The translations under genes were made by a program, and so were the position numbers. The notes below the pieces were generated by a model that did no database searches, was not told where the DNA came from, and saw only the letters and a list, made by a program, of their open reading frames with translations. Below, one piece after another: positions 30,443 through 62,418 of a stretch of 64,000 nt of DNA; position 1 is the stretch's first letter, and every line of letters begins with the position of its first letter. Source of the stretch: Ignavibacteriota bacterium (GTDB lineage: Bacteria; Bacteroidota; Ignavibacteria; UBA10030; UBA6906); the NCBI GenBank assembly GCA_963801355.1, contig CAWDEM010000008.1, positions 960,001 through 1,024,000 on the forward strand, given 5' to 3'.

Positions 30443-30455
30443 GGAGGCCAACCAC

Positions 30456-41467: not shown

Positions 41468-41477
41468 TGACTGCTCC

Positions 41478-43932: not shown

Positions 43933-44060
43933 GGTCACCGAGTCCCGGCCGGATCAGCCGACGAAGTGTAATTGCTCATGGTCACAGAGTCCCGGCCGGA
44001 TCAGCCGACGAATGTAGTTGCTCATGTTCACCGAGTCCCGGCCGGATCAGCCGACGAAGT
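43921..44060. repeat. Triple 46-47 bp tandem repeat spanning the symporter stop to araB start junction
   Basis: gtagttgctcatggtcaccgagtcccggccggatcagccgacgaagt at 43921, 43968 and 44014, with small differences. Confidence 0.93.
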
Positions 44061-45801
44061 AGAGATATGCCACAAGTATCAGTACCAGCACCAGACACGA
44101 CAGCACAACATCGATCGTCGACCAGGAAGCGCGGGTGGCGCGTTTGTCAGCCTCGGTTCTCGTCGCATATGTCAACCCGCTGATCCTGGAATAGGACGGA
44201 GCCTCGGTCATATAGCTCACGATCACCATCACAGCCGCAGAGACGAGCAGAATGATAATACTGTAGTACTGGAAGAAGATGTTGTTCACGATCCAGAGAA
44301 ACGAGCCTTCCGCATACCGGAATCCCGCGATGAGTTTCACAGGCGTATCCACTGCGAGCCGGAGAATGCCGAGGGTGAAACCCACAATCAGAGCCGAGAG
44401 GCACCCCTTGGCATTCAACCGTTTGTGGAAGACACCCAGAAAGAACACCACAAAGATCGGAGGTGCGAGGTACGACTGCATGCCCTGCAGGTAGTCATAC
44501 AGTCCCCGCCCGCCCCGGATGACGGGAATCCAGAGGAGGCCGATGAGCACCATGACACCGGTTGCCACGCGTCCAACCCACACGAGCCGTTCCTGGGAAG
44601 TGTTGGGGCGCAGGCGTCCGTAGAAGTCGATCGTGAAGAGCGTCGCGCAGGCGTTGAACGCGCCGGCAAGTGAACTCATCAGCGCCGCAAGAAGTCCTGC
44701 CACAACGATCCCGCGAATGCCGACGGGAAGAACATTTGCGACCATAAGCGGGAATGCCTGCTGTGCGTTATCTCGAATCACTTTGCCATCGGGACCGATC
44801 AACAACGATTGGAATCCCGGGATCTTTCCGGAGACTGCGAGGGCGTAGCAGATAATGCCGGGGATGATGAAGATGAAGACCGGCAGGAGTTTGAAGAATG
44901 CTGCTGTAATGGTCCCGCGGCGTGCTTGGGTCTCATTCCGCGCGGTCAGAGCGCGTTGTACGATATACTGATCGGTGCACCAGTACCAGAGGCCGATGAT
45001 GGGTGCGCAAAAGAGCATCCCGATCCATGGGTACGCGTCGTTGAAGTACCACGCCATCTGGGTTGAGGTTTTAATGGGCGCCCAGGTGCCTTCCATTCCC
45101 GCCGGCACCAGCGGCTTCCAGAGGTTGAACATCTCCGAAGGAACGATGGCGCGCAATTCGGACCACCCACCCAGTGCCTGCAATCCGAACAGTGTGACCA
45201 ACGCCGAACCGATAATCAGAACGACCGTCTGTATGGCTTCGGTGTACGCGACCGCGGTCATGCCGCCGACAATCGTATAGAGTCCGGTGATCACGACAAC
45301 CAGAATCGAACCGATCCAGAACGCATCCAGGCCGGCGACATTCATTTCAGGCAATAGAACTGAGAACACGACACCGCCGGCAAAGATACCGACCGCGATC
45401 TTTGTCAGAACATACGCAACCAGTGAGATAATCGAAAGAACCGTGCGCGAGGTCGGTGAAAACCGGCGTTCCAGGAATTCGGGCATGGTGAACACCCGCG
45501 AACGCATATAGAACGGCACCATCACCCATCCCAGAACCAGCAGGCACCATGCGTGAAGTTCGTAGTGCGCCATCGCGACGCCGTCCGTGGCCCCCGATCC
45601 CGCCAGTCCAACCAGATGTTCCGATCCGATGTTCGACGCGAAGATGGACGCACCGATGATGAACCACCCCAACTCCCTGCCTGCCAGGAAATATCCGTCA
45701 GATGTGTTTTTCTGCTTCTTCGAAACCCAAACGACAATCCCGATGATGAGGGCGAAGTAGCCGAAAAGAACGATCCAATCGAGGGGCTGAAGGATGCTCA
45801 T
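44047..45801 (-). CDS. Sodium:solute symporter (SGLT-like sugar transporter)
   Basis: YFLAGR, ASNIGSEHLVGLAG, WYWCTDQYIVQR, AALMSSL. Confidence 0.92.
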   Translation of the reverse strand: MSILQPLDWIVLFGYFALIIGIVVWVSKKQKNTSDGYFLAGRELGWFIIGASIFASNIGSEHLVGLAGSGATDGVAMAHYELHAWCLLVLGWVMVPFYMRSRVFTMPEFLERRFSPTSRTVLSIISLVAYVLTKIAVGIFAGGVVFSVLLPEMNVAGLDAFWIGSILVVVITGLYTIVGGMTAVAYTEAIQTVVLIIGSALVTLFGLQALGGWSELRAIVPSEMFNLWKPLVPAGMEGTWAPIKTSTQMAWYFNDAYPWIGMLFCAPIIGLWYWCTDQYIVQRALTARNETQARRGTITAAFFKLLPVFIFIIPGIICYALAVSGKIPGFQSLLIGPDGKVIRDNAQQAFPLMVANVLPVGIRGIVVAGLLAALMSSLAGAFNACATLFTIDFYGRLRPNTSQERLVWVGRVATGVMVLIGLLWIPVIRGGRGLYDYLQGMQSYLAPPIFVVFFLGVFHKRLNAKGCLSALIVGFTLGILRLAVDTPVKLIAGFRYAEGSFLWIVNNIFFQYYSIIILLVSAAVMVIVSYMTEAPSYSRISGLTYATRTEADKRATRASWSTIDVVLSCLVLVLILVAYLYFVG

Positions 45802-45957: not shown

Positions 45958-48543
45958 TCATTTGAGAAGAAGCATCTTCCCCCGCAACCGGGTTCCTCCC
46001 GATTCAAGGTCACTGAAATACACACCGCTTGACAGCCCCCCGGCATGCCATGCCACCGTGTAGTTTCCCGGCTCCTTTGGCTCGTTTATCAGCACTTCCA
46101 CCTGCCGACCGAGCATATCGTACACGGCGAGTTTCACCCACATCATACCCGGCCCGCGACCTTCCGACCCGGGCCCCCGGCCGCGCAGGGCGAACCCGAT
46201 ATGTGTTGTCGGATTGAAAGGATTTGGAAAGTTCGGATACAGGATCAACGATTCCGGGAGCCGGGACTCATCCTTGACGCCGACCAGAGTGCCGATGAAG
46301 TTCAGATACGCCTCGAGATTCGTGTAGCCGTCCTGACCCACAATGTTGCGATCTGAAGGATCCGCCAGGTTCAGGCCCTGTCCGATTTCCCAGAGATCCG
46401 GCATTCCATCGTGGTCCGAATCGGCCGGGGCCGGCTCCGAGTTGAGCAGGGGCCATCCGCCGACGTCAGTCTGTGAGTCAATAATGCCGGTGATCGGTGC
46501 AGACGCCGGGAATCCCTGCACAGACCTGTACGTCGGTCCTTCATACGTCGCCGTTCCGGTGAACACTTCGTTCAGCACACGCAGGTCTACCGAATCCCTT
46601 CGCGGAAGGATCGCTCCTGCACCTGCAAGCACTGAGGCGTACGCTGCTTCGGCTGTTTGCTGGTTGATAGGGCTGGATGGGAATGGGACGTCGGAGCGCA
46701 TCGCTGTCTTTTCCGCCACGGTTGGCCCCTGAACCCCGTACGTCCAGTTGTCCGCAGTGGCGGTTGGATATCCCTCCACGACATTGCCGCTCACGTGCCA
46801 GTATCCGTAGTCCGCCAGACCGTTTCTGGTGGATGGGTTGATGATTCTGTAGCGCACGCCGGATTTTGTTGCCGGACCCGGTTTGTAGTAGTTCGCCACG
46901 ATGTTGATGGTTGAGAGCGGACTGGCCCATGATGTGTCGTATGCTTCACCGCCATAGGCACTGTTGAAGCCCCAGTTGTAGATCACATTGTTCCGGTGAT
47001 CGGTATTGCCGCTCCCGGATGCGAACCGGGGATTTCGGCTGGAGTGGTGAGCAAGAAGATTGTGGTGATAGGTCGAGTTCGTTCCTCCCCAGATCCCGCC
47101 ATAGCCATGGGCGCCTTTGGGATGGTTGGAGTTGTAAAGGCTTTCGGTGATGAGGCACCATTGGACGGTGAGGCTGTCGCACCAGTACATCGAGAGCGTT
47201 TCGTCCTGGCTCCAGCTAGCAGAACAGTGATCGACGATAATGTTCTTGTACCAGCGGGCGCTCATCGCGTCGGATTCTCCCCCGCTCTCGTCACCCAGCC
47301 TCACTCTGAGGTAGCGAATGATCACCTGGTTCGCATTGACTACAAGGGGATATTTTCTGATGCAGATGCCGTCGCCCGGCGCGGTTTGCCCCGCAATGGT
47401 GATGTAAGGTTTGCTGATCGTGAGATTTGAATTCAACACGATCGTTCCCGACACGCGGAACACCACTGTGCGCGGTCCGCTTGCCTGTACCGCCGCGCGG
47501 AGACTGCCTGGTCCGCTGTCGTCCAGGTTCGTCACTTCATACACCGCACCGCCGCGTCCGCCGACGGTGAATTTGCCATACCCTTCTGCGCCCGGGAATG
47601 CAAGCTGTTGTTGTGCAGAAGATGTAGCGGTGAATGTTCGCTCGTTGCCATAACCGGCGCCTATGCTATTCATTGCATAGGCGCGAACGAAGTACAGAGT
47701 CCCTTCTGTGAGTCCGGTCAGCGTGCTGGTGAATATTCCGGTGCCGGTACCATCCGATGTTGTGTCGTTCTGGATTGTCGGGAGCGGTGAAGTGCTCCAG
47801 CAAACCCCACGTGACGCTACGGGCAGTCCGCCGTCCCATTGCACGTTGCCGCCGCTGGTGGCTGACGTCGGATTGATGTCCGAAATTGCCGCGGTCGTCA
47901 CGATCGGAACGCCCGTCGTATCCTCGGTGGTTGTCACTCCAGTGATGACGACGTTGCGAAGATACAGGTACTTCGAGGTGGATGCATTCGTGCTGTTGTA
48001 CCAGGGAGAGACCCGCACATAGAACGATTGCGTGCTGTGCACTTCAACGTTCAGCTCAAAGGCCGGTGAGGGGGCCAACCAGGCATTGTTCGGGAGGTTT
48101 TCGGCGCGCTGCAAAACCGCGCGAAACAGAAAGGTTGAATCGATGGCGCAGGAGATCGATGCACCCATTGTACTGGTGCCGCCCCCGCCGATGTCGAGTG
48201 TGAGCGAGGTAATCCGGAGAAACTTGCCTGGGGCGGGGGCGACAGCAAACTGCACGAACCTGGCGGAATTTTCGCCGGTTTCGTACGGCCAGGTTTTCTG
48301 GCCGAGATTCAGCCGTTGGCCGCCGCCGCTGGCTGCATAGTCCCTGACCTGGAGATTCACGGAGGAATCGGAGGCCGAATACGAGAATTGTTCCGGCAGA
48401 CCCGTGATCGCGCCCACGGTCCGGGACACACTGGTATTGGCGGTGATGTCCCAGGCCACGGAGGCGGTATCCTGAGCGCGGAGCATCCCATGGGTTGCGG
48501 TCGCCAGGCCTACAATAAGTCCAATTTGAAAGAAATTCTGCAC
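45958..48543 (-). CDS. Secreted pectate lyase (PL1) with unknown N-terminal domain, Fn3-like domain and T9SS CTD
   Basis: AFPGAEGYG...GGRGG, IAGQTAPG, IVDHCSASWSQDE, SRNPR, DSDHDGMPD; NFPNPFNP CTD. Confidence 0.9.
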   Translation of the reverse strand: MQNFFQIGLIVGLATATHGMLRAQDTASVAWDITANTSVSRTVGAITGLPEQFSYSASDSSVNLQVRDYAASGGGQRLNLGQKTWPYETGENSARFVQFAVAPAPGKFLRITSLTLDIGGGGTSTMGASISCAIDSTFLFRAVLQRAENLPNNAWLAPSPAFELNVEVHSTQSFYVRVSPWYNSTNASTSKYLYLRNVVITGVTTTEDTTGVPIVTTAAISDINPTSATSGGNVQWDGGLPVASRGVCWSTSPLPTIQNDTTSDGTGTGIFTSTLTGLTEGTLYFVRAYAMNSIGAGYGNERTFTATSSAQQQLAFPGAEGYGKFTVGGRGGAVYEVTNLDDSGPGSLRAAVQASGPRTVVFRVSGTIVLNSNLTISKPYITIAGQTAPGDGICIRKYPLVVNANQVIIRYLRVRLGDESGGESDAMSARWYKNIIVDHCSASWSQDETLSMYWCDSLTVQWCLITESLYNSNHPKGAHGYGGIWGGTNSTYHHNLLAHHSSRNPRFASGSGNTDHRNNVIYNWGFNSAYGGEAYDTSWASPLSTINIVANYYKPGPATKSGVRYRIINPSTRNGLADYGYWHVSGNVVEGYPTATADNWTYGVQGPTVAEKTAMRSDVPFPSSPINQQTAEAAYASVLAGAGAILPRRDSVDLRVLNEVFTGTATYEGPTYRSVQGFPASAPITGIIDSQTDVGGWPLLNSEPAPADSDHDGMPDLWEIGQGLNLADPSDRNIVGQDGYTNLEAYLNFIGTLVGVKDESRLPESLILYPNFPNPFNPTTHIGFALRGRGPGSEGRGPGMMWVKLAVYDMLGRQVEVLINEPKEPGNYTVAWHAGGLSSGVYFSDLESGGTRLRGKMLLLK

Positions 48544-48545
48544 TA

Positions 48546-48719
48546 TTCTATGTCAGGGACAAAACTCAGGCTTTTTTGTCTGGCTTTTAAGTCTGCGAAA
48601 AACCTCAGGCTTTTTTGTCTGGCTTTTATGTCAGGCTCTTTTGCCTGGGTTTTATGTCAGGGTTTTATGTCAAACTTCTACGTCAGGCTTAACTTCTACG
48701 TCAGGCTTTCGTATCAGAC
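48546..48719. repeat. Degenerate 13-bp tandem array (about 13 units, consensus TTTTATGTCAGGC)
   Basis: ttttttgtctggc, ttttatgtcaggc, ttttatgtcaggg, ttctacgtcaggc and similar units fill the intergenic region. Confidence 0.8.
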
Positions 48720-48736: not shown

Positions 48737-50257
48737 CTACCACGGCAGATCGTACGAAACGCCGGCCGCGACATTGCCGCGCAGCTCGCGGTTAACGCTT
48801 GCAGCGTTGGACCATGTGTCGACGTACTTCATATCGGCATATTCATATGCCAGATTGAAATTCACATCGGCATATCCGATTCCCAGGCCTAGTGAATACA
48901 CTGCGTACTTCACCGCCTCACCGCGGATGGCATTCGACAGCGGTTCGTACACCTCATGATCCTCGCGTACCCCGCCACGGAGTGTCAGCCAGTCGTTGGC
49001 TTTGAATTCCGCCCCCACCTGCCACAACGAAGCGGACAGCCACGGGTTCGATCCCACTCCATCAGCCCCTGTATAGACGGCCAGTGCATACGAACGGATC
49101 TCATACCCGAGTCCGACCGTGAGACGGTCGCTCACCTTCACCGAAAGGCCGACAGTTCCCCGCCAGGGCAGTTTCACGTTATCTTCGCCGGCAAGCGTTG
49201 AAGTCCAGGCGGTATGCAGAGAATCCACCCGGTGATTCAGCGTGCTGACCGCCGTCACCGAGTCAGTGCGCATTTCGCTTGAGTACTTCCTCGTGATGGT
49301 GGTCGGCGGCTTGATGGCGACTCCGAATTCGTAGAACCGGCCGCTGTATTTGGCCGAGAGTGTGAATTCCGTGCCGCTGAATTCTGACGTTCCCGTTTTG
49401 GTGTAGCCGGTGACCGCATTCTTCGAGAGTCGCAGATAATTGTTGTAGAATGTCATGAGTCCACGGCCCACGCGCGCCTCCAGGTCATCCACCGTACCCT
49501 TCAGGAGCATCCCGCTGACGCCGACAGTCAGATTCTCAAGGATGCCGGCGGATGCCGCACCCCCATAGCCGTAGATCGAGCCGTCGCGCTTCTGATAATA
49601 TTGAAACCACTGGGTGCGGTACGGATTTGCAGCCAGCGTCGTCGTTGAAATGGTCCCGTTCAACACCGACAGCACCGACGGCGAGAAGCAGTTGTTGTTC
49701 TGGTAGAACCTATTGAGATTCGCGTACTCGACAACACCGAGTCCGGCAACGATCTTGATGTTGTCGACGGTGAACGGCACGGCGACAAACACCTGCATGG
49801 GAGCTGTTCGGGTCGTGGAGCGAGTCCAATTCGGGCCGATGTCGTCGAACGGCCGTTGCACGCTGTCGCTTGCATTGGCATTTGTCGGAATCGAATCCGG
49901 ATCGCTGATGTTGCCCGTGACGGCCTGCGTCAACAGATTGAAGGCCGAATGCGTCTGCAGTCCTCCATAGAGCTGATCCTGTTTCGTGTAGGACGTCTGG
50001 TACAGAACGCCGACGGACACCTGGATCTTCTCCAGGCTCTGGAGCATGGCAGGATTGGCGAACATCAACGAGACGTCGTTGTGCAGGCCGACGGAGATTC
50101 CGCCGGCTCCGCGTGATGCGGCTGACTGGAGCGTGGTGCGGTGCACACCCTGGATGGTGAGGGGGGTATCATAGCCCTGCGCAAAGAGCATATGCACCCC
50201 GGACACGCAGAGGATCAGGAGCGCGGCAATTGCGTATGCATTCAATGAGTGTCTCAT
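48737..50257 (-). CDS. OmpP1/FadL-like outer-membrane beta-barrel
   Basis: Signal peptide, ASRGAGG...FANPAML hatch motif, beta strands, aromatic C-terminus. Confidence 0.72.
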   Translation of the reverse strand: MRHSLNAYAIAALLILCVSGVHMLFAQGYDTPLTIQGVHRTTLQSAASRGAGGISVGLHNDVSLMFANPAMLQSLEKIQVSVGVLYQTSYTKQDQLYGGLQTHSAFNLLTQAVTGNISDPDSIPTNANASDSVQRPFDDIGPNWTRSTTRTAPMQVFVAVPFTVDNIKIVAGLGVVEYANLNRFYQNNNCFSPSVLSVLNGTISTTTLAANPYRTQWFQYYQKRDGSIYGYGGAASAGILENLTVGVSGMLLKGTVDDLEARVGRGLMTFYNNYLRLSKNAVTGYTKTGTSEFSGTEFTLSAKYSGRFYEFGVAIKPPTTITRKYSSEMRTDSVTAVSTLNHRVDSLHTAWTSTLAGEDNVKLPWRGTVGLSVKVSDRLTVGLGYEIRSYALAVYTGADGVGSNPWLSASLWQVGAEFKANDWLTLRGGVREDHEVYEPLSNAIRGEAVKYAVYSLGLGIGYADVNFNLAYEYADMKYVDTWSNAASVNRELRGNVAAGVSYDLPW

Positions 50258-51330
50258 TAGAATCCCGCTCCTATGCTAATGCGGTGGACACTCCCAAGTT
50301 GGAATTCGAGGGCGCCGTAGCTGTAGTCGACGGAGAGCAGTGCCCCGGCGATGTTTTGTTTGACTCCTACGCCCGCCGTAAATCCATCCGCATCATAGTT
50401 GAACTTGTATCCGCCGCGGAATGCCACGATGCCGGCGAACTCATATTCAACGCCCATGTGCGCCTGCTGTTCATAGTCGTTCGGCTGGAAGAGATCGAAG
50501 GCCACGCCGAACCGGTGCTCAGTACTTTCTAGAAGTAGCGGATTCGATCCCACGATATCGGCGGCGATCCCAACCCGCAGCGCAAGGGGAATCGCATTGG
50601 TCTCGGGTTCATAATCCACGGGGGACTCATCCGCCTTCTTGGTATAGGTGACATTGGGGCCGAAATTCTGCACCGATGCCGCAAGCCTGATGGACCGGTA
50701 GCCCGTGTTGTACTGCAGACCGAAGTCGAACATGATCCCGTTCGCCCAGGTATTCACGTTCACGGCATCTCCTTGACTGGTGTACGCGGCCACGGTGCTC
50801 CCGTTATAGAGGGACTCGTGAGCGAATTTTGCCGTTACACCTGTGGAGAATTTGTCGGTGAGCTGATAGGCATAGGTCAGGCCCACCATGTAGGCAAACG
50901 GCCGGAACGTCCTGCCGGTCAGCCCCGGATATTCGGTGTTATCCTTATAGGGAGAATCCCAGACCGCCTCGTCGATGCTGCCGAAATCGATGTATTGCAG
51001 CTGCAGGCCCACCGACCCCCAATCGCCGAGCGACGTCGCGAACCCGAGTGCGCCCTGCTGTGTGTCGAATATCCATCTCACATACGAGAGCGATGCCTCG
51101 CTGGTGCGTGTAATGCGGTTCTGGAGATCTGCGATGCCCGCGGGGTTCCAGAACACCGCCTCGGCCCCCGTCGCAAGCACGCTGTAGGCTTCGCCCATCG
51201 CGGTTGCCCGGGCGCAGGGCATGACTTTCAGAAACTGCATTGAGGTGCTGCCGACTTTTTGTGCGAGCACAGGAAGTGAGAATACGCTGAGCAGAATGAG
51301 CGGCAGGAGAGACCATATGACCTTTTTCAT
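50257..51330 (-). CDS. PorV/PorQ family beta-barrel (second PorV paralogue)
   Basis: KVGSTSMQFLKVMPCARATAMGEAY, FWNPAG, QNFGP, PLALRVG, VDYSY...HRISIGAGF. Confidence 0.85.
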   Translation of the reverse strand: MKKVIWSLLPLILLSVFSLPVLAQKVGSTSMQFLKVMPCARATAMGEAYSVLATGAEAVFWNPAGIADLQNRITRTSEASLSYVRWIFDTQQGALGFATSLGDWGSVGLQLQYIDFGSIDEAVWDSPYKDNTEYPGLTGRTFRPFAYMVGLTYAYQLTDKFSTGVTAKFAHESLYNGSTVAAYTSQGDAVNVNTWANGIMFDFGLQYNTGYRSIRLAASVQNFGPNVTYTKKADESPVDYEPETNAIPLALRVGIAADIVGSNPLLLESTEHRFGVAFDLFQPNDYEQQAHMGVEYEFAGIVAFRGGYKFNYDADGFTAGVGVKQNIAGALLSVDYSYGALEFQLGSVHRISIGAGF

Positions 51331-51347
51331 TGCTGTCATATCCTTTG

Positions 51348-53738
51348 TCAATGAATGATGACAAACTTGCCAGTCGCCGTTGTCCCCTTGTCGAGGTCTT
51401 CAACGACGTAGAAATAGACACCTGCCGCTATTCTCTGGCTGTTGCGTGAAATCTGGAACCACTCATGCGAATAGACGTTGGCCGAATGGTCGATCTCTCC
51501 GATAAGCTGACCGCTGTACGAGAAGACCCGGATCTTCGCCCGTTTTGGCAGTCCGTAGAAACCGATCTTGTCTTTGATATCGCCTTCCCTGGTCGATCCG
51601 CCGAAGTTGCTGCTGATGACCAGCGGATTCGGGGCCACGTACAGTTTGCCTCCGAGTTCGCTCACGGCACCCTTCTGCGTCGCGTGGTAGATCATGTTCG
51701 TCATCCCGCTCTTTCCGCCGAGCGAATCGACCGAAATGACGCAGTAGTAGTAATTCTCGCTCAGGATGCTTGCGCCGTCGCGGTAAACGTATTTGTTGGG
51801 ATAGGCAGGATCCACATTGAAAAACTTTGCGTCTCTGATCCTGACGCTGTCGAGCACGGTCCAGGGGCCAAGCCCGTCGGGCGATTTCATCACCAGATAG
51901 TGTTTCAGGCCCGCGCGTATCCGTCCGGTTGCCACGGCAGCCTGCACCGCCGGGAGGGTCCTGAAGTCTTCCACCTGCGGCCCCCATACCACTCTGTTCT
52001 TCGTGTCAACCCCATCCAGCACCTCGGCGAGGGGAGCCGGAAACGGGATGTAGCTGGTGCGGTACGATCCACTGGCGGCCGTGCTTTCCGGCTTGAACTG
52101 GACTCCATCGTACTTTGTCAGCGGCCTCCCGGTGTACATTTGGATTGCGCGGTCGGCGGCATCGCGCAGGGAGATGACCTTCGCCGCATCGGCCGACGAA
52201 ATCCCCTTTCCTGCCGACACGTACCAGGGCAGCTCGTGTGTCTGCAGATACTTGCTCCCCATCGTGGTGATCCCCGAGATGGCGGAGAGCCCCGGATAGG
52301 TCAGCTCATCGTACCAGCTCGGCACGGGATTGAAGAAGCCATTTGTCGAGGAGTTGGATCCGCCGCCATCTCTCCAGACACTGTCTTCGGCAACGCCCGG
52401 ACCATATCCCACGGCGTGCGCGATCGCGAACTTGAGGTGTTCGCCTTTCTTGAAGATGTACGGGCCGAATGACATGTAATGGAAAAAGGCGCCGGTGTAT
52501 CCGCTGGCGGAAGACGCGCGCGGCTTCATGCGCCCGTGCCAGTACTCGCGGAACGCGGTGTTGGCTGCCACGTCCACCATTGCACCGGGAAAGGGCTCGA
52601 TAGCGTACGGGGCATAGGCCTTCGACCAGTTGGCAGAATCAGGGGCGGAAGACCCCGTACTCACGCTGTTGATTGCCCCGGGATTGTGCACGGTAATGTC
52701 CAACCCGAGAGCGATCGTCCTGGCCATTTCCTGGTTGCGGTTGCCGTTTGTCTCGGTCGTGTAAGGTTGCTTAAATTTCCCGTTGGCATCCCACACGCGC
52801 GCGCTGTCATTGACGGTATACGTTGTCTGACTTCTTGGCTGGAGATGTTCGTAGTCATAGTGGAGCGGCAACACGCCGATGGCCTGCGGAGAATTCAGGC
52901 CTCCGCGGTTTCCCGGTGTTGACCATTCGTTGAAATACGATGTCCCGGCGCTGTTCGACGGATCCTCCGGGAATCCGTCGCGGGGATGCACATAGGTCAT
53001 CAGGCGGGAGTAGTTGTACCGCGCATACTCCTCCCGGCTGCGGCTGGTCGTGGAGGATTCATTCCACACGCCGTACTTTCGCATGAGTCCAAACGCCGAC
53101 GGGGAGAAAGCGTTCTGCGACATGACAAACCCGTCGGTATAGTCCATGGCGTCGTTGTTGACGATGTCGTACTCGTAGATGATGAACGCGTCGTATCCCG
53201 GATAGCTCCAGGCACGGCTCGTTTGTGTGACCTCAATGTTCATGGGAGGGGTGGTCCGGTACTTCGACACAATGATCTCCTCCGCTTCATCGGGATTCCA
53301 GGCGGGATTGAGCGAGCCGTCTGCACGCACCGGGTAGTTCTCCGTGCGCGTGATTTCTCCGGGGAGCACATACACCCCGGCGATAGCGGTGGCATTGCCC
53401 GAGCCGTCGGTGACACCGCCGCATGCCCGGAACTGGTAGGTGTCACCAACTTTGGCTCTCAGGACGAGGCCGGATCCCTGGCCGTTATGCTGGCCGAAAT
53501 AGATCTTCCCGTCGAGGGTCATCCTTGAGTTTGGCGGCCACTCCAGAGCGGAGGTCTGCTCGGCGATACCGACGGTGGAAGAGTTCGACCCTTCGAGGGC
53601 CCTTCCCAGTTCGCCGGTATTATAAATCGTCTGGCGGAGCATGCTGCGCGTATGTGTTTCGAACGCGCGCTGCTGTTGCGACAGCACCACAGTAGAGATC
53701 AGGACCGCCGCGAGACTGACATGTGCGATGAGTTTCAT
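51348..53738 (-). CDS. Hypothetical secreted protein with Fn3-like and T9SS-type C-terminal domain
   Basis: Signal peptide; YYYCVISVD; LYVAPNP...IRVFSYSGQLI...AAGVYFYVV...GKFVIIH. Start placed at MKLIAH. Confidence 0.75.
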   Translation of the reverse strand: MKLIAHVSLAAVLISTVVLSQQQRAFETHTRSMLRQTIYNTGELGRALEGSNSSTVGIAEQTSALEWPPNSRMTLDGKIYFGQHNGQGSGLVLRAKVGDTYQFRACGGVTDGSGNATAIAGVYVLPGEITRTENYPVRADGSLNPAWNPDEAEEIIVSKYRTTPPMNIEVTQTSRAWSYPGYDAFIIYEYDIVNNDAMDYTDGFVMSQNAFSPSAFGLMRKYGVWNESSTTSRSREEYARYNYSRLMTYVHPRDGFPEDPSNSAGTSYFNEWSTPGNRGGLNSPQAIGVLPLHYDYEHLQPRSQTTYTVNDSARVWDANGKFKQPYTTETNGNRNQEMARTIALGLDITVHNPGAINSVSTGSSAPDSANWSKAYAPYAIEPFPGAMVDVAANTAFREYWHGRMKPRASSASGYTGAFFHYMSFGPYIFKKGEHLKFAIAHAVGYGPGVAEDSVWRDGGGSNSSTNGFFNPVPSWYDELTYPGLSAISGITTMGSKYLQTHELPWYVSAGKGISSADAAKVISLRDAADRAIQMYTGRPLTKYDGVQFKPESTAASGSYRTSYIPFPAPLAEVLDGVDTKNRVVWGPQVEDFRTLPAVQAAVATGRIRAGLKHYLVMKSPDGLGPWTVLDSVRIRDAKFFNVDPAYPNKYVYRDGASILSENYYYCVISVDSLGGKSGMTNMIYHATQKGAVSELGGKLYVAPNPLVISSNFGGSTREGDIKDKIGFYGLPKRAKIRVFSYSGQLIGEIDHSANVYSHEWFQISRNSQRIAAGVYFYVVEDLDKGTTATGKFVIIH

Positions 53739-53768
53739 CGTGAGATTCCTGCGATGCGTGTACATAGG

Positions 53769-56690
53769 TTAGAAATCGATGGCGATCCCGAAATAGTATG
53801 ACCGCGGCGCGTTCTCATACAGTACGAACTCATGATTCACACCGTATGCACTGCCAATATTCTGGTCATCCCAGTAGAGCACACCGTGCGCCGGATCATC
53901 CCACGCGAAGTTCTCGTAATTCGCCAGATTTGCGTTCTGATCGATCTTGTTCGCGGTGTTGAACAGATAGTTGTAGTTGTAGATTCTGTCGTTAAAGAGA
54001 TTGAAGACCTCCATGTAGACCGTCGCTGTTGTGCCGAAGAACTTGGGGATCTGCTTGGAGATTCTCAGATTCGTATTCCACTCCGACGGAGTGCGGCGGC
54101 CGTTCACGTCGTTGGCGTTGCTGCTCGGGGTGTATGGGCGACCGCTCCGGATGAACGAGTTCACCGATGCGGTCATCCGTTCGAAGGGGTAGATGCCGAG
54201 CACTTCCGGACCGAATTCCTCCGGCGACATGTACGCCAGATTGATGATGAGATTGTGCGTCCGGTCGAAATTCAGGAGAACGTCCTTGATCGGCACTTTG
54301 GTCACGATATCCGTCGACACGGCGCCGGTGAGGTCTTTGGTGATTGCTACGGGGGCATTGGATGCCGAAGCGCTCTTTCCGGTGGCGACACTGAACTGGT
54401 AATTGACCGAGCCCGTGAAGGCGCCCCGCCGTTTCGCCAGCGCTATCCGGAATCCGCGTACGTCGGCATAGTCCCTGTTGAAATAGGAGAAATAGCTCGT
54501 TCCGGTCGACAGGTTTGTGAAGACCGCCTGCTCGATCAGGTCCTTGATGTCCTTATAGTAGCCGCTCACATCCAGCGTAACCCCTTCGGTGATCCCCTGC
54601 ATGACACCGACATCGTAGCTGTTGGTCACCTGCGGATGGAGGCGCGGATTCCCGAGGCTGTACACCGTGGCGGACGTCGGAGGGGGAGGATATTTTTCCG
54701 TCGAGCCGATTACATACTGGAACGAAGGCCGCTGCATGAATGAGCCGTAATTCAGATGGAACACCGTCGATGTCGACACCGGGAAAGACACACCGACGCG
54801 GGGCTGCAGGCGGCCGATCGGCTTACTCTTCTCCCGGGGGGCGCTGCCCGCATCAAACTGCAGTGTGGGGTTTCCGGCCTCGTCGCGCAGCAGGAAGGGG
54901 TCGAACTGGTCGATGTAGTATTCATTGTTCGAGTGCCAGAGATCCCAGCGCAGCCCGACGTTGGCAATCATCCCCTCGAACTCCATCTTGTCCTGTATGT
55001 ACGCTCCCAGCTCCATGGGGTACGCAGTGAACTGCTTCTGGGTGATACTGCCTTTGGAAGCGATGTTGCCGATATTATTCACGTCCAGGGAGTACAGGCT
55101 CCCCTGCAACCCGCCGTTGATCAGATGCGAGCGGGTGACCTGGCTCGTGAAGTTGGCATCCAGGGAGAGGGTTGTGGTCTTCTCGTCCGTGAAGTTGCTC
55201 AGGTTGTTGGCAAGGTAGAAATAGGTCTTGCCCGTCATGGCCTGATAGTACATGAAGTTCATCGTGCGGGTGATGATCGCCGTGCCCGTCTCCATGTTCC
55301 GCACCTGATCGGTGATGGTGTTGTACCACGGCGATGTCCCGACCCGGTTGTTGGTACGCAGGGCATTGAGCTTGACCTCGTAGAAGCTTTGCTGGCTCAG
55401 CATCTTGGTGAATCGCGCGCCGAGCTGAAGATTGGTGTTCTTCCGGTACGAAATGCCCAGGATCCGGTCCCAGATCCACTGGTAGAATCCCGTGCCCGTG
55501 CCGAGGATATTCCTGCCCTCGTACTGGTAGCCGGAGCTCAGTCGCAGGGCGCTGCTTGCACCCATGTCAAACACCACGTTCCCCATCACCTGTAACTTTT
55601 TGTCCGGCTCTTCCGTGGGGACGAGCGAATTCGTGATCTCCGACCGCCCCGCGAGGAACATCGTCACTCCTTCTTCCAGCGGACCGCCCAGGGCGCCTTC
55701 GACAGAGTAGTCGATCTGATTTTTCCAGTACTTCTTGTTCATGTCCTTCTGGGTCGCCAGCCCATAAATCGTCTGTGCCACCTGAATTGCCACGGCCGTG
55801 TCGCCTCCGAAGTCGGAATAGGTCCATCCCATGATGGGCTGGTTTCCGGTGGAAGCATCGCCGGTGAACCACCAGGCCGGATCGGCGAGTTTCTGCATGT
55901 ACGGGTTGGCGCTCTGGTCGTACACGCTCGGGCCGAAGTATTTCAGGCCGGGGGCCCGGATTCGTGATTCGAGGCGTCCCCGCCATTTGTCGGCCTTCCC
56001 CTCCTTCATGCTGATATTCACAACTCCCGATTGGGCATTGCCGTATTGCGCACCGAACCCGCTCGTGACCACCTCCACCTCTTCCACGGCACTCATGATC
56101 GGCCGGAATGCGGCACTGGCATCCAGGGGATTCACGATGCCCATGCCCTGCAGGGTGTAGTACTCCTCGTTCTCGCGGCCGCCGCGGAAGTGTCCGTCCG
56201 TGATGTCGGCCGCCAGCCCGATCACGTCGTTCACATCGCGCATGCCTGCCAGCCCCGCGACGTCATCCGAGCGCAGGATGACACTGGTGGAGGTTTTCTC
56301 TCGCTCCACATCCGGGCGGACAGCCTCTACGATGACGGCATCCTGCTCGATTGCAGTCGCCCTCAGCTGGAAATCCACAGCGGTCGTTCGGCCCGAGTTC
56401 ACGATCGTGCCCCGTTCGATCACCCGCTGGTAGCCGACCATCGAGGCCTGAACATCATAGCGTCCTACGGGGATGTTCAGGATGAAGTACGAGCCTTCGA
56501 TGTCGGTGGTCCCGCCCAGTTTGGTCCCGATGACCGAAATGTTTGCGCCCACCAGGGGTTCTCCGGTTTGCTGATCCTTGATGACGCCGGATATCTTCCC
56601 CGGTGTCTGTGCTGACGCAACAGACATGGCCAGCACCAGCACGGCAAGGGCGCACAGGGCGAGGCCGGACATGGAGAGTCCATTTTTCAT
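53769..56690 (-). CDS. TonB-dependent transporter with N-terminal carboxypeptidase-regulatory-like domain
   Basis: GKISGVIKD..TGEPLVGANI, HFRGGR, GFGAQYGNAQSGVVN, YIQDKME, QPRVGVSFP, GNPRL, C-terminal Phe. No SusC-type signature seen. Confidence 0.92.
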   Translation of the reverse strand: MKNGLSMSGLALCALAVLVLAMSVASAQTPGKISGVIKDQQTGEPLVGANISVIGTKLGGTTDIEGSYFILNIPVGRYDVQASMVGYQRVIERGTIVNSGRTTAVDFQLRATAIEQDAVIVEAVRPDVEREKTSTSVILRSDDVAGLAGMRDVNDVIGLAADITDGHFRGGRENEEYYTLQGMGIVNPLDASAAFRPIMSAVEEVEVVTSGFGAQYGNAQSGVVNISMKEGKADKWRGRLESRIRAPGLKYFGPSVYDQSANPYMQKLADPAWWFTGDASTGNQPIMGWTYSDFGGDTAVAIQVAQTIYGLATQKDMNKKYWKNQIDYSVEGALGGPLEEGVTMFLAGRSEITNSLVPTEEPDKKLQVMGNVVFDMGASSALRLSSGYQYEGRNILGTGTGFYQWIWDRILGISYRKNTNLQLGARFTKMLSQQSFYEVKLNALRTNNRVGTSPWYNTITDQVRNMETGTAIITRTMNFMYYQAMTGKTYFYLANNLSNFTDEKTTTLSLDANFTSQVTRSHLINGGLQGSLYSLDVNNIGNIASKGSITQKQFTAYPMELGAYIQDKMEFEGMIANVGLRWDLWHSNNEYYIDQFDPFLLRDEAGNPTLQFDAGSAPREKSKPIGRLQPRVGVSFPVSTSTVFHLNYGSFMQRPSFQYVIGSTEKYPPPPTSATVYSLGNPRLHPQVTNSYDVGVMQGITEGVTLDVSGYYKDIKDLIEQAVFTNLSTGTSYFSYFNRDYADVRGFRIALAKRRGAFTGSVNYQFSVATGKSASASNAPVAITKDLTGAVSTDIVTKVPIKDVLLNFDRTHNLIINLAYMSPEEFGPEVLGIYPFERMTASVNSFIRSGRPYTPSSNANDVNGRRTPSEWNTNLRISKQIPKFFGTTATVYMEVFNLFNDRIYNYNYLFNTANKIDQNANLANYENFAWDDPAHGVLYWDDQNIGSAYGVNHEFVLYENAPRSYYFGIAIDF

Positions 56691-56758: not shown

Positions 56759-58169
56759 TTACTTCTTCTGTGACGCATAGGTCAACTTCACATTGATCAA
56801 ACTCAAGTCTTTGACGTTGTCGAGTACATTAGGCTCTTCGACGTTGTTCGAATGTACAGTTGCGCACAGAGATGTTCGTCGCGGGAGAACGTTCGTACGC
56901 TTTGATCCAGATGCCGAACTTGCTCTTGTTGCAGGTGACATCCTGCACATCGATATTCCGCACGATCGGCGTGAACGCTCCGGTATCCCCCTCTTCGTAA
57001 TAGAAGTCAACCTTGATGACCGCCTCGGCGACCTGTCCGACCTGTACATTCCGCATGAAGATGTTTTCCAGCACTCCTCCGCGAAGGGCGTTGGTCTTGA
57101 TGCGCAGGGCACGGTCCAGGCGCGGGCTGTCCATAGTACACCGTTCTGCAAACACGTTGCGCACTCCGCCGCTGATTTCGCTCCCCAGCACCACCCCGCC
57201 ATGACCCTCGATCATGCGGCAATCGCGGATGACCACGTTTTGTGTCGGCACGTTGACACGCCTGCCATCGGCATTCCGGCCTGACTTGATGGCGATGCAA
57301 TCGTCTCCGGTATTGAACGTGCAGTTTTCTATCAGGACATCGGTGCAGGATTCGGGGTCGCAGCCGTCGTTGTTGGGTCCGAGTCCCTCCGCGGTGACGC
57401 CGACGATCGAGACGTTACGGGAGAGCACGGGATGGAGGAACCACATGGGGGAGTCCTTGAAGGTCACCCCCTGTACCAGGACATTTTTGCACCGGTAGAC
57501 CTGGAAGAAATTCGGCCGGAGATAGGCGCCTTCCCCCATGAGGCGCTCGCGCACGGGCACATTTCTGTCAGCCATGTCGAGGAGTTTTTTCCGTGCCGCG
57601 TTCTGGTTCTCCACCGCTTTCTGGTTGCCCCCCGCTTTCTTCCCGTCACGGGTTGTATTCCCCTTCCAGAACCACCAGTTCTCCGGGCTTCCCTGTCCGT
57701 CCAGAATTCCGTCGCCGGTGACGGCAATATTCTCCTGCTCGAATGCGTAGATGAGGGCCGAGTAGTTCATGCATTCCACCCCCTCCCACCGTGTGTAGAC
57801 CAGGGGGAGGTATTTCCGGGGATCCGTGCTGAAACGAAGTACGGCGCCTTTCAACAGATGGAAATTCACGTTGCTTTTGAGATGGATGGCACCGGTGAGG
57901 TACACGCCTGCAGGGACAACGACGCGACCGCCCCCGGCTGCATGGCAGGCATCGATTGCGCGCGCAAAGGCCCCCGTGCAATCAGTGTTGCCATCTCCCA
58001 CGGCATTGTAGTCGCCCACAAGGAAATCCGTGCCCGGAAACGAGGGTGGGACGATCTGTTTCAGGATTTCGGGCAACTGATCCCAACCGATTGGGGTCGT
58101 GGAGGGGGGCTGGGCGCAGGAGGCCTGTACGAAAATAGCGATGCACGGCAGCAGGTAGCGAAGTTTCAT
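56759..58169 (-). CDS. GH28 polygalacturonase, frameshift near 56850 affecting the last about 30 codons
   Basis: NNDG, GDDCIAIKSG, GHG and RIK catalytic motifs. The C-terminus continues in another frame (NVEEPNVLDNVKDL...). Confidence 0.92.
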
Positions 58170-58352
58170 GGTCAACGGTGCCGGTTGAAGTTGATAGAAG
58201 AGTGATGAAAAAGAACAGGGCGAGATGAATCAGTATCGCGGACGCCGATGACTGCGTCCAGGACTATGCTTTTCTAATAACTACCTCGGGGCGGGAGTAT
58301 TGAGGGACCTCCCTTTAAGCGTGTCCTTTAGCGATTACTTTGGGGTATTTTC

Positions 58353-58535: not shown

Positions 58536-59537
58536 TCACTGCGAAGGATGGAGGTTCGTCACGAAACCCATCTCTCCAAGCCACGCTTCACAGATCAAAG
58601 TCCAGAGACCGGCCGAGCCTGGGTTGTTTCGCAGAGCAATTTTGTGCTCCCCATAGGGGAATACGTGCAAACTTGCAGAGACACCCTTTTCCACGAGTGC
58701 CTGCTGGAAGAGCAGGCTGTTTTGTAGCGGAACGACATTGTCGTTCACCGCGTGCACGAGAAACGCCGGCGGGGTCGTGCTGGTCACCTGCGTCTCGTTC
58801 GAATACTTTTCGACAAGAGCGGGTGAAGCTTCCGGGCCGAGGAGGTTGCTGCGAGAACCAACGTGCGCAAAAGATCCCAGATTGATGACCGGAGAGATGA
58901 GTATCATGAAATCAGGCCGGAAGGAGACCCTATCGAGGGAATCGCCTATGGAGGCAACATCTTCTCCGTGTGTCCCGACTGTCGATGCAAGATGCCCTCC
59001 CGCGGAAGTTCCCATCACACCGATCCTGTCGTGCCTGATCCCCCACTGCGCGCTGTGCGCCCGTACGATTCGAATCGCCCGCTGCGCGTCCTGAAGAGGG
59101 GCAATCTGCCGCTCCACGAGGTCGGGGGACGTAGGGAGACGGTAGATCAACACAAACGCCGTCACGCCGAAGGTATTGAACCACTTCGCAAGTTGCAGTC
59201 CGGCACTCTCGTAGGCAAGTCGCTCGTATCCTCCGCCGGGGCAGATGACAACCGCGGCTCCTTTGTTTTCCGCGGCAGGCGGGAAGAACGCCAGCAGCCG
59301 TGGCACGCCAACCTGCGTGATACGATGATCGACGATCACTTCTTCAACAATGATTCCCCTGGAGTTCGGCATTTTCTTTTCCGGCCAGAGGCGGATAGTT
59401 TCTTGGGCGCCTGCAGTCTGGATAAGGCTCAACCCGATGACAATCAGCAAGCTGATGTGGAGGATCCCGGGGCGAGCAGCGAGAAGAACCGATAGTATCC
59501 GTGCGCACAGTGGGTGGGCGAATGTTCGCATGGTCAT
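58536..59537 (-). CDS. Alpha/beta hydrolase, probable pectin acetylesterase-like esterase
   Basis: CPGGGY, GTSAGGH nucleophile elbow, D..V and H triad region; pectin-locus context. Start approximate. Confidence 0.8.
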   Translation of the reverse strand: MTMRTFAHPLCARILSVLLAARPGILHISLLIVIGLSLIQTAGAQETIRLWPEKKMPNSRGIIVEEVIVDHRITQVGVPRLLAFFPPAAENKGAAVVICPGGGYERLAYESAGLQLAKWFNTFGVTAFVLIYRLPTSPDLVERQIAPLQDAQRAIRIVRAHSAQWGIRHDRIGVMGTSAGGHLASTVGTHGEDVASIGDSLDRVSFRPDFMILISPVINLGSFAHVGSRSNLLGPEASPALVEKYSNETQVTSTTPPAFLVHAVNDNVVPLQNSLLFQQALVEKGVSASLHVFPYGEHKIALRNNPGSAGLWTLICEAWLGEMGFVTNLHPSQ

Positions 59538-59686
59538 GTGCGTGTTTGTTTGAAAGAGGTGTTCATTATGTGGTGTTGCCGGTGACCGGGAGCCTTCCAT
59601 CAATTTCCCGCTTCGAAGTTTAGGAGGAGATGCTATGCCGTAACCGGCGTCATCCTTATGTACATTCAGAATCCAGATGGCAGCGT

Positions 59687-60675
59687 TCACTTTGCTGGCC
59701 GGACTGGTTTCCATCCATCCGAACCTGCAAGCACAGTCTGTGGAGTGATCTTCTCTGCTTCTTCCTTGCTCAGCTGGCGTGACCAGGGCACGCGCGTTGA
59801 CGGGCTGGCTCCCGGACCGTAGTTCTTGTACTCCAGGTACCGGGCGGTCAATTCGGCTTCGGGCTTGCTCCAGTTGTGCCATCCCTCCGGCAGGATATGC
59901 TTGCCCAGATCGCAGCGGATGAATGCAGTATATGCATAGAGCCGCCACGGACGGCCAAGGTAGACTTTCGTGGTCTCCGAGTCGGCCAAAAGTTTACAGT
60001 CCAGGAAAACAAACCCGAACTTCTGGGCTGCCGGTGTTGAGGCGGCCGTGATGTACGAATTCTTCTTGCACATGATCGTACAGCGCTCGAACACCGCTGT
60101 GCTCGGGCCGAAGATGAAATCGGTTGTTCCTTCGATATAGCAGTCAGTAAAATACTGCCGGCAGTATTCTCCGGCACCCAGGAGCGTGTCCTGGTTGCCA
60201 ATGAACCTGCAGTTCCGGAATACGCACCGGTCCCCTTCCACATGCATCGCCACCGCCTGTCCAACGCGGCCCGCGGAGTTGATGAACGTAATGTTCTCGA
60301 CGGTGATGTCGGTTCCTGAGATGCGGCAGGTATGCGAAGTAAATGTGCCGTGCTTCCGCCCGCTGGTGTCGAGCTTGCCCGAATAGTCGTTGTATGTTAC
60401 AATCGTGCTGTCCACAGACTCGCCCATCAGGGTGATGCGTCGTTTCCAGGAAGGGATTATCAGCTTCTCCTCGTAGATGCCATTCTTCACGAATATCGTG
60501 TAGTCCCGTTCGGAATAATCGCGGCAGGCGGTTACAGCATCCTGAATTGTTGTGAAATTCCCGCTGCCATCCTTCGCAACCACGAAATCGTACGCGGGAT
60601 CAGTGACTCCGCCTGATGCGCTCGCACAGGTCAGGACAAGAAGTCCAATCACGTGAACGGCTCTGATGCATACAT
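59687..60675 (-). CDS. Pectin methylesterase (CE8); start likely disrupted by an indel
   Basis: VAKDGSGNFTTIQDA, GQAVA, GNQDTL, EGTTDFIFG, YLGRPW. The RBS-proximal ATG at 60675 is out of frame with the GTG ORF at 60652. Confidence 0.92.
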
Positions 60676-62418
60676 GAGATTCCTTCCTTCATTTCAGACA
60701 GGAGCAAAGCTTTTTTCTCTTTGAGACAGGAAGCCTTCTGCTCATTTCCTGGGGGAATTGCGCGGACATGGAACCAGTCCACATCGGCATATCCCGCAGC
60801 TGCAGCCCGGGCAGGTGCCGAACTAAAGAGGCCTACTTTGGCGCCCACCCATACCCCTTCCCTGGCAACAAAGACTTCTCCAATCCGGGCGTAGCTGGCC
60901 CCGTCCAGGCTATAACTGAAGCTACAACGCACTTTGGGGATGATTTCTTCAGGGTTCTCCGGCTTCACATCAACGCGAAACGTCACTGTGGGGCCCTTCA
61001 CGTCCACCGAATCAATAGTCTGCTCGGGGCTCCCCTTGTCGGCTTTCCGGCAGACATTCTGAATCAGCCGGAAGCCATGCCTCGTCTTCTGGATGCCGAC
61101 ATAGGCATAGTCCATCCCGAAGATGATGAGTCCTGCGACCTCCCCCGCTTTCTTTGCGTGGAGGTCCAGGCGGCTGGTTGCGCTGAATGCGGGGGCAGGC
61201 AGTTTTTGGAGCATCAGGGCCGCAACATCCCAGAGATTCCGAGTCGAGTCTGTAAACAGCTGCGAGCGCAAACGCATGCGCCCCTTTTCCAGCGAGTACC
61301 AGTCGCTGTCCGGATTCCCGTTCCATTGCCATTGCATCCCGATAGCGGGGAAATCAAATTCATCGGATGTCTGCGGTTCGTCGCGCGGACCCTTGTAGTC
61401 GACTTTCGGTTTTCCAAACGACTTCACCGGCTCCCCGATGCCGTTCTTATCATAGTCGATTCCGATTACAGGCCAGTCGTCTACCCATCGCATCGGTTCA
61501 AGGTGGATTACCCGTCCATAGGCATAGCGGTCCTGAAAATGCACGAACCAGTCTTCGCCTCCGCGTGTATCCACCCAGGCTCCCTGGTGCGGACCGTTGA
61601 CGTTTGTGCTCCCCTGCTCGAGGACCTTCCTGTCTTCGTACGGCCCGAAGACAGACTTCGACCGCAAGACGGTTTGCCAACCCGGCTTCACTCCCCCTGC
61701 GGGCGCGAATATGTAGTAGTAGCCGTTCCGCTTGTAGAGTTTCGGACCCTCGATTGTGGGATGATTGGCGTGGCCGACGAAGACGACAATCCCGTCGTCG
61801 AGGATGGCAGTCCCTTCCGGGTTCATTTTGTTGATAGCCAGAATGCTCTTGATACCTGCTCTGCTGTTTGCCCAGGCGTGGACAAGATAGGCGGTGCCGT
61901 CGTCATCCCAGAACGGACAGGTATCGATCCACCCCGTGACCTTACGGATGAGCGTGAGAGGTTCCCAGGGTCCGGCGGGGTTCTTTGATTTCGTCATGAA
62001 CACACCGCGGTCGGGATCCCCGAAGTAGATGTAGAACTCCCCATTGTGGAACCGGATTGCCGGTGCCCAGACGCCCATGCCATGTTGCGGTGCATTGAAC
62101 AGCTCGGAGGGATACCGCTGGATGGCATGACCGATGATGCGCCAGTTCACGAGATCGCGTGAATGGAGCACTGGCAGACCCGGGAAGTGCGCAAAGCTCG
62201 AAGCGGTCAGATAGAAATCATCGCCAACGCGGATCGCATCGGGGTCGGAATAATCGGCATACAGCACAGGGTTAGAGTAGGTACCGTCTCCGTTGTCAGC
62301 GTGCCACACCAGACTGTCCGGCGGCGTTGTATCCGGCAGCCCGCCGGCGGCACCGCAAACAGCAATGGCGGCCGCGCTGACTGCGACCGCCATGACAGAA
62401 ATGGATGAACCGGTGCAT
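60600..62418 (-). CDS. GH43 glycoside hydrolase with C-terminal beta-sandwich; both ends likely affected by indels
   Basis: NPVLYADYSDPD, WAPAIR, IDTCPFWDDDG, IEGPK, HQG. The real start is probably MHRFIH at 62418 and the real stop near 60743. Confidence 0.88.

Follow-up and report, generated by a model that had tools for sequence, protein, structure and literature searches.

How might pectin fragments be captured at the cell surface when the locus that handles them encodes no SusD protein? SusC/SusD is the accepted model of glycan capture in Bacteroidota, and the question is raised by a 64,000-nucleotide stretch of an Ignavibacteriota genome (assembly GCA_963801355.1, contig CAWDEM010000008.1, positions 960,001 to 1,024,000), referred to here as the window. 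Inside a pectin/arabinan locus of the window, four open reading frames (ORFs) follow one another on the minus strand, between 48737 and 56708. They encode a TonB-dependent transporter (TBDT; P0001), an 805-residue protein with a type IX secretion system (T9SS) C-terminal domain (CTD; P0002), a PorV/PorQ-family barrel (P0003) and a FadL/BamG-like barrel (P0004). The four genes look co-transcribed and stay together in at least four phyla of the Fibrobacterota-Chlorobiota-Bacteroidota (FCB) group, where their neighbours are genes for pectin degradation and uronate catabolism.

A first-pass annotation had described the cassette as four tightly coupled genes. All four ORFs are indeed present on the minus strand in the order it gave, with either a 3-nt gap or an overlap of 1-4 nt at each junction, from which we conclude that the genes are translationally coupled. 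The cassette end that it placed at 56690 corresponds to the second ATG of the first ORF, which itself reaches 56708. Read by eye, each of the four N-termini carries a signal-peptide-like hydrophobic stretch, and none has a lipobox cysteine. Scanning the window against Rfam gave no match, and promoter and terminator scans returned results at chance level.

Conservation of the cassette and its pectin setting

A genome scan yielded 300 stretches encoding a relative of P0002, of which 69 distinct loci were kept. Gene order was counted by tblastn with the four window proteins, over those loci that extend far enough on the side in question. The TBDT gene stands immediately upstream of the P0002 homologue in 61/61 loci, with a median spacing of 28 nt between aligned ends. 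Immediately downstream, 59 of 60 loci have the PorV-like gene, which is followed by the FadL-like gene in 54 of 55; a single locus, L018, is the sole exception in both counts. All four proteins show similar levels of identity to those of the window (40-97%). With the same gene order in nearly all related loci, the cassette is far beyond what chance would produce.

Judged by record titles, the loci belong to Ignavibacteriota (15), Calditrichota (5), Rhodothermota (3) and KSB1, together with many metagenome-assembled genomes (MAGs) labelled Bacteroidota only. Among the carriers are the cultured Roseithermus sacchariphilus (Rhodothermota; locus L061) and an assembly labelled Ignavibacterium album (locus L025). 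The triad of TBDT, CTD protein and PorV-like barrel, for which the first-pass annotation had proposed a neighbourhood survey, is thus conserved in Ignavibacteriota, KSB1 and Calditrichota, and also in Rhodothermota. A distant paralogous cassette was not found when the four families were compared by phmmer and hmmsearch with 695 locus ORFs (at least 110 aa) and 37 window ORFs.

The genes around the cassette were characterized by clustering the locus ORFs and annotating cluster representatives. Recurrent neighbours are GH28, a PelZ-like lyase with a CTD, GH88/105, LacI, CE8, a GDSL esterase and GH43, and further KduI, a KduD-like short-chain dehydrogenase/reductase, UxaE, UxaC, PL10, BD-FAE and DUF4861. 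The pectin context was counted over the 56 loci whose flanks beyond the cassette reach at least 3 kb (L061 was left out). At least one pectin-linked cluster (GH28, PelZ-like lyase, GH88/105, CE8, PL10, KduI, UxaE or UxaC) occurs in 46 of the 56; taken singly, GH28 is found in 30, the PelZ-like lyase in 25 and GH88/105 in 23. The anticipated association with carbohydrate-active enzymes (CAZymes) is therefore borne out.

The cassette had also been called SusD-free, and this description holds over the sequence scanned. SusD is absent from the 35 window ORFs scanned against Pfam, and likewise, in the related loci, from 22 cluster representatives and from 113 of the 133 other flanking ORFs that reach 300 aa. 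The 20 ORFs left out comprised 12 scanned earlier, one in an annotated cluster, one antisense to a P0002 homologue and six minus-strand ORFs of the high-GC locus L061 that were judged spurious.

Two further features of the flanks are recorded here. Directly after the cassette in 34 loci lies a family of approximately 520 aa (cluster c0; for example L041:14859-16433 and L050:14741-16342) that has a canonical type-A CTD and no annotation. Its glycine-rich repeats look beta-helix-like by eye, and its profile has no match in the PDB beyond the CTD. The window lacks c0, and the PelZ-like lyase occupies its position. In L028, L029, L033, L051 and L057, a second TBDT lies upstream (N-terminal extension plus Plug or TonB barrel model in Pfam) and is directly followed by a different type-A CTD protein of 552-1053 aa, bearing CBM9 in L057 and fn3 in L051, with no dedicated PorV-like gene after it. 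This suggests that a TBDT followed by a T9SS cargo is a recurrent theme in these lineages.

The four proteins and a predicted cargo-carrier pair

P0002 is the component without annotation. Its signal peptide, read by eye, lacks a lipobox cysteine, and its body has no sequence match in Pfam, NCBIfam or the PDB. An initial AlphaFold2 (AF2) run with 24 close homologues reached a mean predicted local distance difference test (pLDDT) score of 62, and Foldseek then returned only FN3 tandems; it was superseded by a run with 103 sequences including distant paralogues (pLDDT 90.8, predicted TM-score 0.92). The resulting model is mostly beta-strand and falls into three parts, namely the body, an FN3-like domain and a C-terminal beta-sandwich (aa 707-805). 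Against the PDB, Foldseek matched the C-terminal part to FN3 tandems, PorZ (5m11, 5e-6) and PorU (2.6e-5). For the body it returned only carbohydrate-active enzymes with sandwiches (dextran dextrinase 9ju0, GH94 phosphorylases and exo-arabinanase 8ic6), all of them poor matches (TMq 0.19-0.23 and rmsd 11-14 A over approximately 440 columns). No SusD-like fold is among the Foldseek matches listed, the SusD Pfam models give no match to P0002 at E<=0.01, and none of the 24 and 103 aligned relatives is a SusD as judged by name or precomputed Pfam. A SusD/RagB identity for P0002 is ruled out by the mostly beta-strand model, the absent lipobox and the missing SusD Pfam match. The first-pass annotation would have been refuted by a match of P0002 to SusD or a known catalytic CAZyme family, and these searches gave no such match, TMq not exceeding 0.23.

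The clusters that an Atlas search returned for P0002 (at 0.92-0.93) came from Zixibacteria, Fidelibacterota and Gemmatimonadota and were all unnamed; no named look-alike was found. A word-indexed search gave 366 relatives; the best 120 of these share at least 43% identity over at least 57% of the query (most over at least 95%) and are named either 'hypothetical' or 'T9SS C-terminal target domain-containing protein'. An exhaustive profile search retrieved 3204 representatives at E<=1e-3, 1010 at E<=1e-10 (these being clusters at 50% identity) and 60 at E<=1e-30. The family consists of approximately 20 close full-length clusters, followed by many proteins of 600-880 aa that have mainly the FN3 and CTD regions in common. 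One of the latter, P0169, aligns with P0002 over 584 columns at 30% identity (hhalign probability 99.95%), and we therefore regard the 600-880-aa relatives as full-length distant paralogues. Fourteen such paralogues were inspected, and none has an informative Pfam domain in the body.

The C-terminus of P0002 scores 21.9 bits on the T9SS model TIGR04183, just under the cut-off of 23, and does not match PF18962. Its motifs (PNP, GxY and a terminal K-x-x-x-x-H) are type-A-like, and the type-B model PF13585 gives 19.9 bits against a cut-off of 27. The PorZ model NF052228 matches aa 692-805 only (E 8e-7, 27.8 bits, cut-off 260), and the ortholog profile reaches PorZ 5m11 at 0.017, so that by sequence comparison the CTD appears nearest to that of PorZ. 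P0003 belongs to the PorV/PorQ family (NF033709, 199.9 bits, cut-off 90), while falling below both equivalog cut-offs (PorV 75.8 against 250 bits; PorQ 85.5 against 220). Its ortholog profile matches PorV 6h3i_F at 2.6e-16. The second PorV-family barrel reported by the first-pass annotation is therefore real, and is distinct from the canonical PorV encoded elsewhere in the window, with which P0003 shares 25% identity.

A complex of P0003 (aa 28-364) with the C-terminal portion of P0002 (aa 575-805) was modelled in three runs alongside three controls. The interface score ipSAE was 0.92 in all three runs and 0.00 in the best control, with contact agreement of at least 98% and a partner pLDDT of at least 83. 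The modelled interface runs through the CTD (aa 707-805), including K800-H805; a PorV-CTD complex of like kind has been solved (8glj). In calibration, 116 of 157 solved complexes scored this high, as against 2 of 215 mismatched pairs, figures that apply approximately here as our own alignments were used. Modelling thus supports anchoring of P0002 by P0003 as a cognate carrier. The earlier proposal that P0002 is held by its own PorV paralogue is supported by the model as regards docking of the CTD on P0003; specificity for the paralogue does not follow from the model.

Several comparisons bear on this pairing. Mean identity within the P0002 family is 66% for the CTD and 57% for the body, compared with 35% and 47%, respectively, for the neighbouring PelZ-like cargo. 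In L018 (L018:722-3100), the P0002 homologue is 62% identical to that of the window and interrupted by an in-frame stop, and its family CTD has been replaced by an ordinary type-A one. It is also the sole homologue without PorV-like and FadL-like neighbours, on a contig with only 721 nt upstream to its end. It is a second copy in a MAG that also holds a complete cassette (L014), and its neighbours are BNR-repeat CTD proteins. Adjacency of the P0002 and PorV-like genes, conservation of the CTD and the CTD swap in L018 are independent sequence-based hints of a dedicated P0002-P0003 pairing.

P0001 matches only the CarboxypepD_reg N-terminal domain in Pfam when the window protein is used alone, which misses the Plug and barrel models, and gives weak TonB-receptor matches in NCBIfam. 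Across 24 orthologues including the window protein, Plug is found in 17 (weakly, best E 0.0038), TonB_dep_Rec_b-barrel in 5 (best E 4.4e-26) and OMP_b-brl_3 in 4. In the PDB, the ortholog profile matches the N-terminal extension of RagA (6e-6), the barrel of PhuR (1.4e-4) and, in YncD and FepA, the plug regions. At aa 123-129 (nt 56322-56342), the sequence DAVIVEA resembles the TonB-box consensus by eye. An hhalign comparison of the TBDT profile with a Plug-bearing TBDT was set aside, its alignment being limited to the N-terminal extension. On the SusC/RagA model TIGR04056, P0001 scores 39.7 bits over aa 38-130 only, against a cut-off of 368.25, and is classified from these matches as a TBDT outside the SusC/RagA subfamily.

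P0004 scores 29.0 bits on Toluene_X (PF03349, FadL/OMPP1; cut-off 29.7) over aa 57-124 only, and 40.1 bits on the BamG model NF053685, well under the cut-off of 250. In the PDB, its ortholog profile reaches the BamG-type chain 9hiv_F (4.8e-6) and TbuX (2.6e-3); 9hiv_F is taken as BamG-type because the BamG homologue of the window matches it (3.4e-22) alongside 9n2d_B, 'Bam G'. P0004 and that homologue align with an hhalign probability of 60%. Other FadL-family barrels occur near related cassettes: a 498-aa Toluene_X protein beside a divergent 731-aa TBDT (L014:1314-5091), and a 401-aa FadL-like protein after CsgG-like and response-regulator genes (L017:18017-19222).

The coordinates of the cassette and its surroundings are collected in Table 1. 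The region 4208-26827 is a T9SS core neighbourhood, in which SprA, PorU and PorV are T9SS machinery needed by the P0002 cargo, and the pair at 29201-31709 may be the BamH/BamG-like pair of this lineage. The genes at 39989-45801 serve downstream arabinose catabolism. Between the P0004 stop (48737) and the start of the lyase gene (48543), approximately 7-8 copies of a 13-nt unit occupy 48569-48690 (plus-strand consensus TCAGGCTTTTATG, period 13 or 26). These may be regulator sites or the promoter region of the lyase gene.

Table 1. Features of the window, with cassette components and their parts listed before the surrounding genes.
Feature	Position	Strand	Remarks
P0001, TonB-dependent transporter, 979 aa	53769-56708	-	probable start 56690
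P0001 parts: signal peptide; CarboxypepD_reg-like N-terminal extension (aa 39-127); then plug and barrel		-	signal peptide by eye
P0002, T9SS cargo protein without annotation, 805 aa	51348-53765	-	probable start Met10
P0002 body, large, mostly beta-strand	aa ~33-575	-	AF2 model
P0002 FN3-like domain, aa ~576-700	51666-52040	-	AF2 model and Foldseek FN3 tandem matches
P0002 family-specific, type-A-like T9SS CTD, aa 707-805, ends KFVIIH	51351-51647	-	predicted to dock on P0003
P0003, PorV/PorQ-family outer-membrane barrel, 364 aa	50257-51351	-	
P0004, FadL/BamG-like outer-membrane protein, 506 aa	48737-50257	-	
GH28 polygalacturonase family	56829-58175	-	directly upstream; cluster c5, in 30/56 loci
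PelZ-like pectate lyase with T9SS CTD	45958-48543	-	directly downstream; cluster c6, in 25/56 loci
BD-FAE esterase	58536-59948	-	
CE8 pectinesterase	59687-60652	-	
GH43	60600-62393	-	
Inner-membrane SSF symporter	44047-45801	-	
Ribulokinase	42217-43938	-	
L-ribulose-5-P 4-epimerase	41478-42176	-	
Sugar isomerase	39989-41506	-	
SprA	4208-11239	-	
LptF/LptG	11413-13895	-	
Omp85-like protein	14918-16333	-	
Peptidase-MA/TolB-like propeller protein	16065-18248	-	
T9SS-dependent M6-like inactivated metalloprotease	18248-21556	-	
Canonical PorV	21541-22866	-	NF033710, 241.6 bits (cut-off 250); adjoins PorU
PorU	22733-26827	-	
DNRLRE-domain protein	29201-30442	+	
BamG-family barrel	30456-31709	+	NF053685, 247.8 bits (cut-off 250)

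A proposed uptake module weighed against its alternatives

The explanation that we favour, and to which we give about an even chance of being right, is that the cassette is a pectin-specific outer-membrane uptake module built around the TBDT. T9SS-secreted lyases would nick pectin outside the cell. P0002 would be exported by Sec and then by the T9SS, and its atypical conserved CTD would be captured by the adjacent P0003 as PorZ is by PorQ, two steps that modelling supports. The CTD would stay on P0002, neither cleaved off nor handed over by the general PorV, and P0002 would be anchored permanently at the surface. The beta-sandwich body could then bind pectin fragments and hand them to the TBDT, perhaps acting as a lid over it. 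P0004 might serve as a structural adaptor that joins the P0002-P0003 anchor pair to the TBDT, a role suggested purely by analogy with BamG, which docks BamH onto BamA. TonB-driven import would be followed by periplasmic trimming by GH28, esterase and GH43 enzymes, and then by uptake through the symporter.

One possible alternative, which we consider rather unlikely, is that P0002 works as an enzyme anchored at the surface, namely a lyase or hydrolase that attacks some pectin substructure and represents an undescribed CAZyme family. The two barrels would then position it beside the TBDT, like SusG in a utilisome, and it would not be a binding lid. At many positions, close orthologues of P0002 have an invariant Arg, Asp, Glu, His, Trp or Tyr, identity across phyla is high (at least 40%), and the sole structural matches of the body are the carbohydrate-active enzymes named above. 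The quality of those matches, the absence of any sequence match in the body and the lack of a named Atlas cluster argue against an enzyme, as does the wider family of 103 sequences, where near-invariance in the body is limited to Pro, Trp, Gly and Tyr and extends to no charged residue that could serve in catalysis. In addition, the loci already encode a full pectinase set. It is also possible, though improbable in our view, that the neighbours do not form one complex, with the TBDT alone importing oligogalacturonides, and the CTD protein and its two barrels constituting a separate surface module such as a plant-cell-wall adhesin or a carrier set for the secreted lyases of the locus. Glycan loci with only a TBDT exist, and the five upstream TBDT-CTD protein pairs without dedicated barrels (L028, L029, L033, L051 and L057) would accord with such a separation. 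The invariable position of the TBDT gene directly upstream at short spacing speaks for a single unit, together with the similar conservation of all four proteins, and a fixed order with coupling across phyla would be typical of the subunits of one machine.

The resemblance to PorZ and PorQ could instead mean that P0002 and P0003 are simply this lineage's version of that pair, a general T9SS attachment component that lies in a pectin locus by chance. The P0002 CTD is most similar to that of PorZ, and P0003 scores slightly better on PorQ than on PorV. Both equivalog scores are nevertheless far under their cut-offs, the PorZ match is confined to the CTD, the modelled P0002 body is not the double propeller of PorZ, and the pair is linked to a TBDT and pectin genes while the T9SS core genes lie elsewhere in the window. 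Orthology to PorZ/PorQ was rejected on these grounds, and we regard this explanation as very improbable.

Several observations weigh against the uptake module itself. The invariant charged and aromatic residues of the close orthologues would also fit an enzyme, and glycan binding by P0002, like its contacts with the TBDT or the FadL-like barrel, is inferred. PorV-CTD complexes have already been solved (available text of PMC10994853), and the modelled score of 0.92 may therefore reflect memory of those structures; what this prediction indicates is a PorV-like binding mode, and it is neither a measurement nor a sign of specificity over the canonical PorV. The ratio of CTD to body conservation is not discriminating, being 1.15 for P0002 and 1.18 for the heterogeneous c0 cargo family, and the L018 exception is a single case with an in-frame stop. 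The FadL-like label of P0004 is the weakest of the four identifications, being drawn from sub-threshold matches. Finally, 10 of the 56 loci lack a recognised pectin cluster (L013, L017, L018, L019, L024, L047, L052, L056, L060 and L069), several of which have only the c0 cargo family and a hybrid sensor.

Known relatives and what the module would mean

The uptake module has partial counterparts in several known systems. It shares with the SusC/SusD (RagA/RagB) utilisome of Bacteroidia a TBDT with a CarboxypepD_reg-like extension encoded first in the operon, a gene for a surface-exposed partner directly after it and substrate-specific CAZymes around them. It differs in that P0001 fails the SusC/RagA model, in that the partner P0002 lacks a SusD Pfam match and a lipobox and is mostly beta-strand, in a surface route that would be the T9SS rather than lipoprotein export, and in encoding two extra barrels. 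The SusD-free TBDT loci of Proteobacteria (carbohydrate utilization containing TBDT, or CUT, loci) likewise have a TBDT among CAZyme genes and no SusD; they are not known to include a T9SS cargo or a PorV-like or FadL-like partner.

Precedents for the remaining components are taken from the available parts of the articles cited. In Porphyromonas gingivalis, PorZ is anchored by PorQ and PorU by PorV (PMC5562754), a PorV-family barrel thereby keeping a CTD protein on the surface by way of the retained CTD (PMC5562754, PMC10202324), and cognate PorV-like barrels have been proposed to shield CTDs from cleavage (PMC10202324). Here, by contrast, the genes of the pair adjoin each other in a catabolic locus that also encodes a TBDT and a FadL-like barrel, the P0002 body is unrelated to PorZ, and retention of the CTD is predicted. 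Genes for type-B cargo cluster with PorP/SprF genes (PMC10202324), and in SprB-SprF a cargo and its dedicated barrel are co-encoded, with the carrier as the proposed anchor (PMC10202324, PMC10994853); the P0002 CTD is instead type-A-like, and P0003 belongs to the PorV/PorQ family and not to PorP/SprF. BamG of the Bacteroidota beta-barrel assembly machinery is a FadL-family barrel that anchors the surface protein BamH to BamA, an adaptor docking a surface protein on a larger barrel (PMC12611786). P0004 is distantly related and approximately 100 aa longer, and the window has a separate bona fide BamG.

The components are accordingly of known kinds, namely TBDT loci and a T9SS cargo with a cognate carrier. 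Full-text literature searches turned up no publication that describes a TBDT together with a CTD protein and either a PorV-like or a FadL-like barrel, subscription-only papers and supplements lying outside their reach. The cassette is unmentioned in the available text of the Caldithrix genome paper (PMC5317091), and the available text of the Roseithermus transcriptome paper (PMC7409140) has zero term matches to it. As far as the literature search reached, the fixed combination, the P0002 family and its CTD subtype are undescribed.

A broader proposal is more tentative, and we think it somewhat likelier to fail than to hold. Within the FCB group, the lineages outside Bacteroidia (Ignavibacteriota, Calditrichota, KSB1 and Rhodothermota) would possess a distinct class of TonB-dependent glycan importer. 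Its surface partner, in place of a SusD lipoprotein, would be a protein delivered by the T9SS and kept permanently on its own PorV/PorQ-like carrier by a dedicated CTD subtype, with a BamG-like adaptor barrel bridging to the transporter. A large paralogous family with the same CTD (the 1010 clusters) would include the pectin module as a single branch, other branches serving other substrates.

Uptake of polysaccharide fragments by the T9SS-bearing sister phyla, which abound in sediments, soils and hot springs, is largely uncharted, and the module would offer a concrete, testable answer. Cultured hosts carry it or are close to carrier genomes, and experiments are therefore feasible. The module would join a TonB-dependent importer with the T9SS cargo-carrier principle and a BamG-like adaptor, would take the notion of a cognate PorV-like carrier beyond secretion and motility and into nutrient uptake, and would give a role to a large protein family without annotation. 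It may represent a means of sugar capture that dispenses with the usual SusD protein and has not been described before.

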